From an uncultured delta proteobacterium (GTDB lineage: Bacteria > Desulfobacterota > BSN033 > UBA1163), in contig CAVPSJ010000004.1 in NCBI GenBank assembly GCA_963708295.1, positions 672,001 through 736,000 on the forward strand: a stretch of DNA of 64,000 nucleotides, read 5' to 3'. This document shows positions 37,817 through 42,243 of this stretch, in pieces. The stretch's first letter is position 1. Each line of letters opens with the position of its first letter. The notes beneath the pieces were generated by a model, which was given only the letters and a program-made list of their open reading frames with translations, did not search any database and was not told the DNA's origin. The position numbers and the translations under genes are program-made.

Positions 37817-38158
37817 TTAAGAAGGTAGAAACCTGGACAATATCCAGCTCACGACGCTGATCAGAATTGACCCCAGGACCGCACCCCAGAATCCACTGAC
37901 ATAAAATCCCTTGACCAGGGCTGACACCAGCCAGAGCATCAGTCCGTTGATGATCAGCAAGAAGAGTCCCAGAGTCAGCAGCGTGATGGGAAAGGTGAGG
38001 AAGACCAGGACGGGTCGGAGGATGGTATTCACGATCCCCAGGAGAAATGCAGCCACCAATGCCGCTAGGAAACCATCCACCCGGATCATCTTTGGAAAGA
38101 GATAAGAGACAATGAGAATAGCGACCATATTGATGATTAAGCGAACGACGAAGAACAT
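37817..38158 (-). CDS. YvlD / 4-TM phage-holin-like membrane protein
   Basis: LGIVNTILRP, LTLGLF, GFWGA. Confidence 0.85.
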   Translation of the reverse strand: MFFVVRLIINMVAILIVSYLFPKMIRVDGFLAALVAAFLLGIVNTILRPVLVFLTFPITLLTLGLFLLIINGLMLWLVSALVKGFYVSGFWGAVLGSILISVVSWILSRFLPS

Positions 38159-38170
38159 GGTTTTCTCCTT

Positions 38171-39169
38171 TTAGTGATGATAATAACCCTCTTTCCCAAC
38201 CTTACCTCTAAAAACCATGTAGTTATAGACGGTATATCCCAGGACCAAAGGTAAAACGATGATCACTCCCCATAGGGTGAAGCGGAGGGTTTCTTGTTGT
38301 GCCGCCGCTTCCCGAAAAGTAATGCTGGGCGGAATGGCATAGGGGTAGATGGAAGCAATGAGACCCAGGTATCCTGCAAAGAAAAAGATCACACTGAAAA
38401 CAAAGGGCAGAATCTCCCGCCGGGCTCTTAGGCTCTTCATCAGTCCATAGAAGGCCAGCAGGCCCACCAGAGGAAAGGCCCAAATAAAATAGATTCGGGG
38501 TGGATGGATCCAGTTTGTCAGGGCCGAAGGGTAATGGAAAGGCGTCCAGAAGGTGACCAGGATTTGAAAGAGCAAAACCACCCATGCCGCCCAGAAGGCT
38601 TTGTGGTAAGCGCGTTCCTGTACCGCTCCTTCGGTCTTAATGAGAAGATAAGTGGATCCAAGAAGAATATAGCCTGCGATGAGTGCAAGGCCTACGGTCA
38701 CCGAAAAAGGGGTTAGCCAGTCGAAGGGGCCGCCCGCGAATTGACCTTCAGCCACCTTTGTTCCAGAAAGAATGCCACCCAGGGTCAACCCCTGAGCGAT
38801 CACAGCGACCAAACTCCCCAAAAAGAAAGTCGTGTTCCAAAATCCCTTTCGCGTCGCATTCGCCCGGAACTCGAACGTCACGCCACGGAAGATCAGACCG
38901 AAGATGAACGTGAGAAGAGGGATGTAGAGCCCGCTGAAGACCACGCCATAGATCATGGGAAAGGCAACAAAAAGGGCTCCTCCGCCAAATACCAACCACG
39001 TCTGATTCGCATCCCAAACCGGGGCGATACTGTTCATCATTGTATCTCGCTCTTCTTCGTTCCGGGTGGTGGGAAACATCAGGGCTATCCCCAGGCTGAA
39101 ACCATCGAGAACCACATAGAGGAGAATGGCAAGGGCCAATAAGCAAGCCCAGAGAGTGATGAGATCCAA
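38171..39169 (-). CDS. cydB: cytochrome bd oxidase subunit II
   Basis: YVVLDGF, APVWDANQTW, FRGVTFEFR; TTG start after GGGGGG SD. Confidence 0.92.
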   Translation of the reverse strand: MDLITLWACLLALAILLYVVLDGFSLGIALMFPTTRNEEERDTMMNSIAPVWDANQTWLVFGGGALFVAFPMIYGVVFSGLYIPLLTFIFGLIFRGVTFEFRANATRKGFWNTTFFLGSLVAVIAQGLTLGGILSGTKVAEGQFAGGPFDWLTPFSVTVGLALIAGYILLGSTYLLIKTEGAVQERAYHKAFWAAWVVLLFQILVTFWTPFHYPSALTNWIHPPRIYFIWAFPLVGLLAFYGLMKSLRARREILPFVFSVIFFFAGYLGLIASIYPYAIPPSITFREAAAQQETLRFTLWGVIIVLPLVLGYTVYNYMVFRGKVGKEGYYHH

Positions 39170-39189
39170 TGGTTTACCCCCCTTAAAAA

Positions 39190-39345
39190 CAATGTCGAAA
39201 CCCGAAGCACGAAATTCGAAACAAGCACGAATTCTCAAAATAAAAATGACCAAAACAAAAGCGGTTTCGAAATTTGGATTTTCGATTTGTTTCGAGTTGG
39301 TCCGTAACGGACGCTTCGCCCGATATCCGAATTTCGGATTTAGGA
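39190..39345. repeat. palindromic intergenic element built from (T)TCGAAA/TTCGGA-type short repeats
   Basis: cgaaacccgaagcacgaaattcgaaacaa ... ttgtttcgag ... ccgaatttcgg between cydA and cydB. Confidence 0.6.
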
Positions 39346-39377
39346 AGAACTCGTCTACCGATCATCATGAGGATGCT

Positions 39378-40766
39378 TCATCCTGTCTGCGCTGTGCCCC
39401 TGCTTTCTTGAAGGGTCTGCATCCCGGCCAGCCGCTGAATCGGCGGGATAGGGCTCGCCATGTCCGGGCCGGTCTTTAATGTCTTCAGAATATAATAAAA
39501 GTAGCTCGTCCCGACCACGATGAAGATGACCAGAAAAAGGCTCAGAGACCAGATGACATTCCCGGCCGGGATGGGAGAAACACCTTCGCTCGTCCGCATC
39601 AGATTGTAGACGAGCCATGGTTGCCGGCCCACCTCATTGGTCACCCAGCCCAGTTCCGTTGCAAAAAAACCCAGGGGATGCAGAACCAGCAGGGTTCGCA
39701 AGAATGGACGGTGGCTAAAAAGGCGTCCCTGTCGCCAAAGAACTGCAGCCCACACCATGATCAATAGAAGAACAAACCCGATGGCAACCATCAGCCTGAA
39801 GCTCCAGAAGAGGATGAAAACATTGGGGCGATCTCTCTTCGGAAATTCCTTAAGCCCCCGGACTCGACCCTCAAAGGAATGGGTCACCAGCAGGCTGAGG
39901 CCATCGGGGACGTCGATTGAAAGAAGATTGTTTTCAGCCTCCATGTTCGGGAGAGCGATGACTGCAAAGGGAGCCCCTCCTTTGATGTTGGTTTCCCAAT
40001 GAGCCTCCATGGCGGCCAGTTTTGCCGGCTGGTGATGGAAGACCTGCCGACCGCTCACATCCCCTTGGTAGACTTGAAGGGGTGCGAAAAGGGCAGCCAT
40101 CACCAGGGCAATCCCCAAGGACCGTCGGAAAATATCCACGTACCTTCCTTTGAGAAGATAGTAAGCACTGATTCCGGCGACGACGAAAGCAGATGTCTCA
40201 AAAGAAGCCAACGTCATGTGACCCATTCGGGCGAACAGAGAGGAGTTGAAGATCGCTGCTGAGAAATCAGTGACCATGAACTTTCCGTTGACCAGTTTGT
40301 AGCCCGCCGGCGTTTGCATCCAGGAATTTGCGGCCAGAATCCAAAACGCCGAGAGGATGGCCCCGAAGGATACCAGGCAGGTAGCTAGAAAATGGATGCT
40401 TCGCCGGACTCTCTCCCAGCCGAAGAGCATGATGCCCAAAAACCCACCTTCCAAAAAGAAGGCCGTCAACACCTCGAAACCCAAAAGAGGGGAAAAGACG
40501 TTGCCCACTTTTTGGGAAAAGTGAGAAAAGTTTGTACCGAATTCAAACTCCAATACGACTCCTGAGACCACCCCTATTCCAAAATTGATGGCGAAGATCT
40601 TGACCCAGAAACGGTACAGGCGATAATAAATCTCCTGTTTCGTGATTAACCAGAGGGACTCCACGACCACCAGATAAAGGGCAAGACCGATCGTCAACAC
40701 TGGAAACAGAATGTGAAACATGGTGGTTACGGCAAACTGAATTCGAGAAAGAAAAACGGCGTCCAT
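39378..40766 (-). CDS. cydA: cytochrome bd oxidase subunit I
   Basis: RIQF..FHILF, EFGTN, NSWMQTP, QPAKLAAME, EVGRQPW. Confidence 0.95.
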   Translation of the reverse strand: MDAVFLSRIQFAVTTMFHILFPVLTIGLALYLVVVESLWLITKQEIYYRLYRFWVKIFAINFGIGVVSGVVLEFEFGTNFSHFSQKVGNVFSPLLGFEVLTAFFLEGGFLGIMLFGWERVRRSIHFLATCLVSFGAILSAFWILAANSWMQTPAGYKLVNGKFMVTDFSAAIFNSSLFARMGHMTLASFETSAFVVAGISAYYLLKGRYVDIFRRSLGIALVMAALFAPLQVYQGDVSGRQVFHHQPAKLAAMEAHWETNIKGGAPFAVIALPNMEAENNLLSIDVPDGLSLLVTHSFEGRVRGLKEFPKRDRPNVFILFWSFRLMVAIGFVLLLIMVWAAVLWRQGRLFSHRPFLRTLLVLHPLGFFATELGWVTNEVGRQPWLVYNLMRTSEGVSPIPAGNVIWSLSLFLVIFIVVGTSYFYYILKTLKTGPDMASPIPPIQRLAGMQTLQESRGTAQTG

Positions 40767-41042
40767 CGCCCGCCCCTTCGAAATGACCCTTCTTTTACCT
40801 CATGCTTCTCTCAAGGATTGAGTAGTTTCCTCAGGAAAGGAAACATTGATATAGATGCCAGACCCCATTTCCAACCCTGCGGGTGGGGTCAGTCGCGGAA
40901 TAGTAGCTGGATCCCGTCTCAGTTGAGACATGGGAATCTCCGTTTCATGAGGAATGCGGATTGCAGAACGAAGTACCACGTAAGGTACCCTTTTTTGGTC
41001 TATCCGAAGTCGGCAATCCAAAATCGTCAATTATGTAAGAAC

Positions 41043-41195
41043 CTGTTGAGAGACTCATTTTCTCGGGCTGATCAAAAATGCCCAAATGCAAGGCCCCCGA
41101 AATCCTGAGAGTGGCGTTGGGACGAATGAGGAGCGACTCATTGCCACGCCCCCGAAGGGGGCCGGATAACGCCGCAGATGGGTGTTTTTCAACAG
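41043..41195. mobile_element. MITE family B (CTGTTGA...TCAACAG termini)
   Basis: Short TIRs; internal aatgcccaaatgc/gcagatgggtgtt and gtggc/gccac inverted repeats. Confidence 0.6.
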
Positions 41196-41207
41196 CATGA
41201 AAAGGCC

Positions 41208-41369
41208 TTAACCTAAGGCCACGAGTAACCCCACAAAGGCCCCCAGAGGAGTGGAGATGTAAGGGTTACACGTGAAAGCTCAGGAACTTCCGATGCCTCG
41301 GGTAAGATAAGTCAGAGCAAAGCCAGCAGCCCCGCCCAAGAGCATACCGATGAGGATCTTTGGGATCAT
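41208..41369 (-). CDS. putative small membrane selenoprotein, DUF6132-like (Sec at codon 30)
   Basis: SD AGGAGG; MIPKILIGMLLGGAAGFALTYLTRGIGSS-UGA-AFTCNPYISTPLGAFVGLLVALG-TAA; two hydrophobic segments flank the UGA. Confidence 0.7.
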
Positions 41370-41467
41370 ACCTTCCTCCTTTTTATAAAAATACCATTCC
41401 GTAATGGCTAAATCAATAACAAGATGAGTCGATCATTATTTTCGATGCTTCCTCGATGGATATTCAC

Positions 41468-41496
41468 TTGACAGATTGACGTGCGACATCTAGACT
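41468..41496 (+). promoter_or_regulatory. sigma70-type promoter
   Basis: TTGACA-N17-TAGACT upstream of the cytochrome b5 fusion gene. Confidence 0.6.
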
Positions 41497-41544
41497 AATT
41501 GTCATGAACTGAAATCGAGGGATTTATCAATTGGACTCGCGGAA

Positions 41545-42243
41545 ATGATCAAAGAATTTACCCAGGAAGAATTGTCGTCTTTTAACGGAAAAGAAGGGAG
41601 GCCCGTCTATATCGCCCTTCAAGAAAAAGTCTACGATGTCTCCAAGAGTCCCTTATGGTCGAAAGGCCTCCATATGAACAGACATGCCCCAGGCAGGGAT
41701 CTTGCCGGAGAGATCTCTGCGGCCCCCCACGGGACAGAAGTGCTTGAAAGATATCCCCAGGTAGGGGTTTTGAAGAAAGGGGGACCCGAGGAGTTGAAGC
41801 ATCTTCCTCCCGGTCTCCGGACCCTCCTCGAAAAATTCCCGATGGCAAGACGCCATCCTCACCCGATGATTGTTCATTTTCCTATTGCCCTTCTGATGGC
41901 TTCCTCTCTCTTCGTCCTTCTCTACCTCATCTTCAAAGATCCTTCCTTTGACCGTACCAGTTTCTACCTTTTCGTTTTGGGAGCAATCGCTTCTCCCTTT
42001 GCCATGGCCACGGGGCTCGTTACCTGGTGGGTAAATTATCGATTAAAGCTCTCTCTTTTTGTGAAGAGAAAAATGCAGTTTTCGATGCTCCTCCTTATCT
42101 TTGAGATCATCCTCATCCTTTGGCGCAGTTCTCCATCCCCAATATCCAGCCCCATTTATTTCATCATGGTGGTCATCCTCACCCCCATCGTCTCGATCCT
42201 GGGCTACTATGGGGGCCAGATGACTTTTCCGGCAGAACGATGA
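41545..42243 (+). CDS. cytochrome b5-like heme-binding domain fused to DUF2231 membrane domain
   Basis: FTQEEL..FNG, VYDVS, H..RH.PG.DL, APHG; HPMIVHFPIA; GYYGG. Confidence 0.85.
   Translation: MIKEFTQEELSSFNGKEGRPVYIALQEKVYDVSKSPLWSKGLHMNRHAPGRDLAGEISAAPHGTEVLERYPQVGVLKKGGPEELKHLPPGLRTLLEKFPMARRHPHPMIVHFPIALLMASSLFVLLYLIFKDPSFDRTSFYLFVLGAIASPFAMATGLVTWWVNYRLKLSLFVKRKMQFSMLLLIFEIILILWRSSPSPISSPIYFIMVVILTPIVSILGYYGGQMTFPAER

Follow-up and report, generated by a model that had tools for sequence, protein, structure and literature searches.

The locus and its neighbours

The window is the whole stretch of DNA that was analysed, 64,000 nucleotides in length. Its minus strand carries a small candidate selenoprotein gene, and the features at and around this gene are as follows.

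41208..41369, minus strand: candidate selenoprotein gene, 53 codons plus TAA; translated with TGA as U it reads helix 1, a loop with Sec30, Cys34 and helix 2
41375..41380, minus strand: Shine-Dalgarno sequence AGGAGG, with the ATG 5 nt further on (direct reading)
41369-41367, minus strand: start codon ATG (direct reading)
41280..41282, minus strand: UGA, the putative Sec codon, codon 30; invariant in 30/30 loci
41268..41270, minus strand: codon of Cys34 (TGT), which presumably acts as the resolving Cys for Sec30 (UxxxC); invariant in 30/30 loci
41210-41208, minus strand: stop codon TAA (direct reading)
40766..39378, minus strand: cydA, cytochrome bd oxidase (Pfam PF01654)
39253..38171, minus strand: cydB, cytochrome bd oxidase (Pfam PF02322)
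41545..42243, plus strand: cytochrome b5-like plus DUF2231 membrane protein, the divergent upstream neighbour (Pfam PF00173, PF09990)
40806-40967, minus strand: remnant of a galT-like (HIT/GalT family) gene in the ORF 40800..41030, about 11 N-terminal residues joined in frame to the last 32
about 41040-41200: dispersed repeat of about 160 nt, directly 3' of the candidate gene, with 65 blastn matches in the same genome
37054-37668, plus strand: rubrerythrin-domain gene, flanking the end of cydB
37817-38158, minus strand: holin_4_2-family membrane gene, flanking the end of cydB

The minus strand reads MIPKILIGMLLGGAAGFALTYLTRGIGSS-TGA(41282-41280)-AFTCNPYISTPLGAFVGLLVALG-TAA. The gene thus consists of an ATG start, 29 codons, TGA, 23 codons and TAA (41369..41208). 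Direct reading bears out the earlier note on this DNA, which had described a strong Shine-Dalgarno sequence (AGGAGG) with an ATG and a frame that stays protein-like past the TGA. By eye, purine-rich boxes were also seen upstream of the ATG in the majority of the family's 30 loci. The gene had been called unannotated, and public protein sets indeed hold only forms ended at the TGA; all five matches of a word-indexed protein search span just the N-terminal 55%. A separate downstream ORF was considered and ruled out, since no in-frame start lies between the TGA and codon 46.

Gene layout and Pfam agree with the arrangement described before, cydAB being co-oriented downstream and the b5/DUF2231 gene divergent upstream. 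The cydAB genes (38171..40766) follow at a distance of 441 nt, and BioY/ECF transporter genes lie past the b5/DUF2231 gene. Among the 30 loci of this one family, the b5/DUF2231 gene stands upstream in 15, a galT-like gene stands directly downstream, before cydA, in 20, and cydA is found within 1.5 kb in 8; the loci are kin, and these synteny counts are non-independent. The full galT-like gene of the relatives (20/30) encodes about 335 residues, and two full paralogues are present elsewhere in the genome of the window. The dispersed repeat reaches a depth of up to 7,821 in metagenome contigs, shows loose ends near 41066 and 41196, and has no Rfam match in a scan of 40700-41600. Because the galT-like gene survives only as a remnant and the dispersed repeat has been inserted, the adjacency to cydAB is, as judged from the sequence, recent.

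A Sec-dependent O2/redox module that includes cydAB had been proposed. The cydAB genes are not a conserved part of such a unit, cydA being close in only 8/30 loci, but the general O2/redox theme does recur in the neighbourhoods of relatives (see below). Neither cydAB nor the b5/DUF2231 gene is conserved as a neighbour outside one family. In the relative L027, orthologues of the rubrerythrin and holin_4_2 genes directly follow the candidate gene, with no cydAB between them.

Conservation across the TGA and kinship with DUF6132

A six-frame search covered 60 related genomes and the window's own genome, 61 in all. The full-length sequence is present in 34 of the 61, including 32 of 36 same-family relatives. 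Exactly one in-frame TGA occurs in 34 of the 35 matches, at 55–98% identity; the 35th match is weak, with 31 residues that cover helix 1 only. A profile of short sequences only (A4) was then run against 251 genomes of the phylum with completeness of at least 90%. It gave 36 matches in 33 genomes, with an in-frame TGA in 36/36. These matches span at least ten families, f1 (8/8), f39, f59, f13, f14, f12, f27, f52, f41 and f62, and no Cys form is among the 36. The search of related genomes with the read-through peptide, suggested earlier, accordingly finds the in-frame TGA recurring in about 70 genome matches.

Thirty loci, the present one and 29 relatives, were aligned in detail. All 30 keep register through ATG, TGA, 23 codons and TAA without indels, well beyond what chance would give, and 29 codons precede the TGA in all but L037, which has 32 and a longer N-terminus. 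Downstream of the TGA, variability at the first, second and third codon positions is 0.171, 0.042 and 0.310, highest at the third. The invariant Thr33, Pro36 and Gly43 are each written with four codons, and Cys34 with two. Mean pairwise pN/pS is 0.34 upstream of the TGA and 0.27 downstream. The third-position variability and the low downstream ratio therefore indicate that the part past the TGA is translated. That the TGA is conserved and coding continues beyond it is thereby upheld by 34/35 and 36/36 matches together with the pN/pS of 0.27.

Sequencing error or a pseudogene can be ruled out. The TGA stands in about 70 genome matches, and metagenome contigs from four runs of four studies over 40600-41700 show no difference at 41280-41282 among the rows listed. 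Two of the contigs (X2 record 16, X3 record 24), which come from two other studies, run across the TGA and extend more than 31 nt to either side of it; they are independent and without a listed difference. Within the gene, the contig rows listed vary at 16 places, of which, by our own reading, 10 are synonymous and 6 are substitutions that occur in relatives too. No RNA run is listed among the sequencing runs that contain the stretch.

The protein itself scores 13.9 bits against DUF6132 (PF19628; E = 0.043) and does not reach the gathering cut-off of 23.2 bits. Twenty-six of the 30 family members match PF19628 at E <= 1, the best at 8.3e-5. When 1.84 billion protein representatives were searched with a profile built from the 30 sequences, 96 matched, and 40 of these were retrieved. 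Twenty-one of the 96 stop at profile position 28-29, the site of the TGA, and many others are full-length Cys proteins. One public gene call, P0007 (48 aa, ending at a contig end), carries W at the Sec position, the TGA having been translated as Trp.

The Cys proteins show two loop types, G-G-x-C-P-L-T-C-N-P-Y and C-x-S-G-x-C-P-L-T-S-N-P-Y, and it is the Cys common to both that falls on the TGA when they are aligned. The TGA column of alignment A4, whose 24 rows write U as C, is an invariant Cys. Comparison of the Sec family (A1) with DUF6132-type proteins (A8) by hhalign gives 99.4% probability and E = 2.8e-21 over 55 columns. A8 holds nine rows collected with the A1 profile, and P0010, P0036 and P0057, which were checked, score 49.8, 38.3 and 39.2 bits in Pfam. 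In a Pfam scan of ten homologues against DUF6132, four lie above the cut-off, four just below, and two have no match. The natural Cys homologue P0012 is placed in DUF6132 clusters of the ESM Atlas at 0.91 and 0.90.

Set against C-x-S-G-x-C-P-L-T-S-N-P, the present loop has Sec as the second Cys, keeps N-P, lacks the first Cys, and has Ser changed to Cys at +4. The earlier note had placed the TGA on the second conserved Cys of the DUF6132 motif, with the first Cys lost and a new one at +4, and both the alignment and hhalign agree. Sec is found at the same column in a C-x-x-x-x-U subtype too, in other families (L081, L085, L088, L091).

DUF6132 comprises uncharacterised small bacterial membrane proteins of about 55–60 residues. 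The present protein shares with them its length, the two-helix hairpin, glycine-zipper-like helices, the loop motif ...C-P-L-T-x-N-P-Y... and a profile-profile match over the full length. It differs in having Sec for the second Cys, no first Cys, and a Cys at +4 (U-x-x-x-C). These comparisons make the protein a divergent offshoot of the DUF6132 superfamily, in which Sec would replace the sole Cys kept superfamily-wide.

The literature on DUF6132 yielded neither a function nor a selenium form, and one unrelated paper only. Table 1 of PMC13188914 (119 selenoprotein families; 2026) contains neither PF19628 nor U-x-x-x-C; the supplementary tables of the selenoproteome papers might list a candidate. 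No such protein is described in the parts of the deep-Sep paper (PMC12013277) that were consulted. NCBIfam has no model for the present protein, and there are two chance matches among the 24 rows of A4. The family has apparently been undescribed until now, and ours would be the first selenium form seen for DUF6132.

Redox context and proposed role

An AlphaFold2 model built on alignment A4 (mean pLDDT 85.4, pTM 0.65) has a helix at 2-23, a loop at 24-31 with Sec30, a turn at 32-34 and a helix at 36-52. The product is most likely a 53-residue helical hairpin embedded in the membrane. Sec30 would lie in the short loop and Cys34 one helical turn later, and the two could form a selenylsulfide redox pair.

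The surroundings of relatives bear on what such a pair may do. Seventeen Cys-homologue loci were examined, from Elusimicrobia, Zixibacteria, Lentisphaerota, Planctomycetes, Clostridia and Verrucomicrobiota MAGs. A thioredoxin is fused to the hairpin in eight of the 17, two of these eight being fused to a thiol peroxidase as well, and a thioredoxin-like gene lies beside or near the hairpin gene in three more. Other neighbours at the 17 loci are ferritin-like proteins (5), ArsP_1+HMA permeases (5), rubrerythrin (4), flavodiiron proteins (4), a 4Fe-4S protein (4) and Hcp (3).

Sec loci of other families have comparable neighbours. In f39, each of the six loci with upstream sequence has a co-oriented WCGPC thioredoxin gene, which lies upstream at a distance of about 16 nt. 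In f14 (L090, L092, L094), the order is an ECF-type sigma-70 gene, the Sec hairpin gene and a thioredoxin-reductase-like gene in 3/3, and the adjacency of the sigma factor suggests stress-regulated expression. The f14 Sec hairpin proteins have a longer C-terminal tail. At L118 the hairpin gene is located between a gene for a cytoplasmic-type WCGPC thioredoxin and one for an exported, lipoprotein-like thioredoxin, and at L112 and L113 a gene for an exported thioredoxin-like protein is found downstream, some 0.5 kb away; signal peptides were recognised by eye. No thioredoxin gene stands beside the candidate selenoprotein gene in its own genome; close to it in the window are the rubrerythrin-domain gene and cydAB. 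Complex prediction for the L118 thioredoxin and the neighbouring Cys hairpin gave a score of 0.02. In f59 (L082, L083, L084, L086, L087), an O-methyltransferase gene (PF00891) adjoins the Sec hairpin gene in 5/5, in varying orientation.

From these neighbourhoods a thioredoxin-linked redox role is quite probable, and the protein seems to act together with the thioredoxin system in defence against oxygen stress. Electrons would pass from NADPH through thioredoxin reductase and thioredoxin to the hairpin and keep the pair reduced. The hairpin would in turn hand reducing power to an oxidant or a partner at the membrane, in the O2/ROS defence of an anaerobe. The reading as a whole, a selenoprotein hairpin whose thioredoxin-serviced Sec/Cys pair contributes to O2/ROS defence of an anaerobe, is in our judgement fairly probable.

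Membrane thiol-disulfide relays of the CcdA/DsbD kind have proline-flanked cysteines inside membrane helices and are serviced by cytoplasmic thioredoxin. The hairpin can be compared with them in possible mechanism only, by its proline-flanked cysteines and by the thioredoxin genes on both sides of the hairpin gene in L118. It differs in having two helices in the model instead of six or more, and any relay would require an oligomer. No DsbD/CcdA Pfam match was found for the protein or for 30 relatives. As a minimal relay, a hairpin oligomer might draw electrons from cytoplasmic thioredoxin and deliver them to targets at the membrane or outside the cytoplasm, perhaps lipid hydroperoxides or thioredoxin-like lipoproteins that are exported. 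It would then be a selenium-based miniature counterpart of CcdA/DsbD.

Among described systems, the bacterial UxxC/CxxU thioredoxin-fold selenoproteins (PMC13188914, Table 1) are also similar. They likewise have an in-frame UGA at a redox Cys, Cys homologues, a nearby partner Cys, a stem-loop downstream within the gene, and a link to the thioredoxin system. Here, however, the protein is a bare 53-residue membrane hairpin without a thioredoxin fold, the spacing is U-x-x-x-C, and a 45-nt hairpin stands between the UGA and the G-first hairpin, whose loop starts 66 nt away.

The same selenoprotein could instead use its Sec/Cys pair to bind soft metals or metalloids (Hg, Cu, As, Se) or pass them on, in the manner of MerT/MerF-type or CPx-type sites, with no redox cycling. 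Permease genes of the ArsP_1 type with a heavy-metal-associated domain do adjoin five of the 17 Cys homologues. The motif C-P-x-x-C-N-P, with prolines beside cysteines, resembles metal sites of membrane helices, and by analogy this likeness would favour metal binding. Several of the membrane selenoproteins catalogued in PMC13188914 are metal transporters (MerT-like, SO_0444, E1-E2 ATPase). However, fusion or adjacency to thioredoxin, thioredoxin-reductase-like or thiol peroxidase genes is more frequent and extends over more lineages. The partner Cys shifts between -5 and +4, which is usual for a resolving Cys and less so for a fixed metal site, and the window holds no mer, cop or ars operon. 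We regard metal handling as improbable, and the thioredoxin-linked redox role is preferred.

RNA hairpins past the UGA and probable selenocysteine insertion

Two hairpins can form in the RNA downstream of the UGA.

41225..41269, minus strand: hairpin H1, 45 nt, with a pyrimidine-rich apical loop (RNAfold, -17.5 kcal/mol alone)
41204..41220, minus strand: hairpin H2, GGCCUUA-GGU-UAAGGCC, which holds the TAA stop; candidate SelB-binding hairpin (-8.4 kcal/mol alone)

H1 begins 10 nt past the UGA. A stem at 41227-41267 had been noticed earlier, with an apical loop that does not clearly fit the G-first bacterial SECIS model. The stem is real, RNAfold giving the hairpin 41269-41225, and its loop is indeed without G in this family. 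The second hairpin (41220-41204) is absent from that account. A covariance search for a bacterial SECIS, also suggested there, matched no Rfam family: the scan of 40700-41600 at E <= 10 gave no SECIS family and only a chance lncRNA match.

The 83 nt from the UGA fold with -32.1 kcal/mol (z = -3.06), and one of 200 shuffles equals the fold. An RNA alignment of 48 U-x-x-x-C-type sequences from several families is gapless. In these 48 sequences, 88.2% of the cells are paired, compared with 25–54% when the partners are slid. Both sides change in 10 of 16 pairs, a value attained by none of 500 shuffles. The lower stem of H1 is 85% paired, with changes on both sides in 6 of 10 pairs; H2 is 93% paired, with such changes in 4 of 6. 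The third base of the Cys34 codon co-varies with its hairpin partner (columns 15-57).

The loop of H2 starts with G in 48/48, and its second base is G or U in 47/48. The loops are GGU (24), GGC (8), GGG (8), GGA (5), GUG (1), GUA (1) and GAC (1). The stop inside H2 falls at the same codon in 45 of the 48 sequences, as TAA in 40 and TGA in 5. The present H2 passes a simple terminator scan. A T-rich tail follows in few of the sequences (7 of 48), so that as a rule H2 is no terminator.

These hairpins occupy most of the 3' part of the gene, and their conservation and co-variation would also suit a reading in which translation truly ends at the TGA. The product would then be a peptide of just 29 residues, and the conserved 3' sequence would be a non-coding RNA element, such as an attenuator, terminator or stabiliser. 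The terminator-like H2 of the present locus and the public gene calls that stop at the TGA would fit as well. Against this, the 23 codons past the TGA vary mainly at third positions with the pN/pS of 0.27 given above, no indel occurs across the 48 sequences of several families, and the stop stays at one codon in 45 of them. Cys homologues align over the full 53 residues, and the rarity of T-rich tails past H2 (just 7/48) speaks against a terminator. A true stop is very improbable, and translation through the UGA is favoured.

The genome is equipped for selenocysteine insertion. It encodes tRNA-Sec (81.4 bits; ARAGORN anticodon tca), SelA (532 bits), a SelB winged-helix domain (73 bits) and two selD genes (381 and 375 bits), so that the check for selA, selB, selC and selD called for earlier has a positive outcome. 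The selD genes lie outside the window.

G000 C17:66608-67531: selD gene; an in-frame TGA occupies the known Sec position
G000 C4:371872-372792: selD gene; the known Sec position is likewise an in-frame TGA

FdhA, a second Fdh-like gene and MvhD in the same genome also have TGA at known Sec positions. A reading of the UGA that needs no selenium, through near-cognate insertion of Cys or Trp or a reassigned code, would give a 53-residue Cys or Trp protein. It agrees with the W of the public gene call P0007 but is scarcely credible, given that TGA ends 17 of the 31 long frames in the window, that the genome has the complete Sec machinery and further TGAs at Sec positions, and that a stop codon at a catalytic Cys would hardly be kept in all of about 70 genome matches if Cys were wanted. 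Taken together, the sequence evidence makes this very probably a real selenoprotein gene.

Insertion of Sec would then be directed by the two conserved hairpins past the UGA. The bacterial SECIS model, as quoted in PMC13188914, has a loop of 3-9 nt with G within the first two positions, a stem of 4-16 bp, a distance of 16-37 nt from the UGA and an MFE <= -7.5. H2 fits in loop (GGU), stem (7 bp) and energy (-8.4), but its distance of 66 nt exceeds 16-37 nt. H1 fits in spacing, but its loop is without G in this family; some H1 loops of f39 begin with G or AG by our own reading. Neither hairpin satisfies the published model in full.

The hairpins past the TGAs of the other selenoprotein genes of the genome (selD, FdhA, Fdh-like and MvhD) have, by our own reading, the G-first loops GGUCU, GGUCU, GAUC, GGA and GUUU. 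These loops lie roughly 18-27 nt past the TGA. In members of the N-P-W/S-P-W type (L088, L091, L093) the hairpin is short and ordinary, and its GGUC or GGU loop lies about 19-20 nt past the UGA. The H2 loop starts 66 nt past the UGA, a distance that becomes 21 nt when H1 is counted as a closed insert.

We lean slightly towards H2 as the place where SelB binds; H1 would then serve as a folded spacer (10 + 4 + 7 = 21 nt). In such a split SECIS, H1 would be at the mRNA entrance of the ribosome when the UGA is in the A site, and would bring H2 within the usual reach. The joint proposal, a split SECIS with a SelB-binding H2 and H1 as folded spacer, together with the smallest known membrane thiol/selenol relay, is tentative and rather unlikely to be right in both parts.

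With this gene, the bacterial selenoproteome would come to include a very small and widespread membrane protein. The gene escapes automatic annotation, with TGA-truncated calls alone in two large protein collections, and SECIS-based gene finders with a 16-37 nt window would reject it. DUF6132 would gain a first functional handle, one conserved Cys being important enough for replacement by Sec, and its relatives are tied to genes for thioredoxin, thioredoxin-reductase-like proteins, thiol peroxidase and the O2/ROS defence of anaerobes. The two-hairpin arrangement offers a clean test of the reach and the structure through which a bacterial SECIS acts. In five loci (L077, L082, L083, L084 and L087), the stop 23 codons past the Sec-UGA is a UGA too, and it lies within H2 (A5 columns 73-75).
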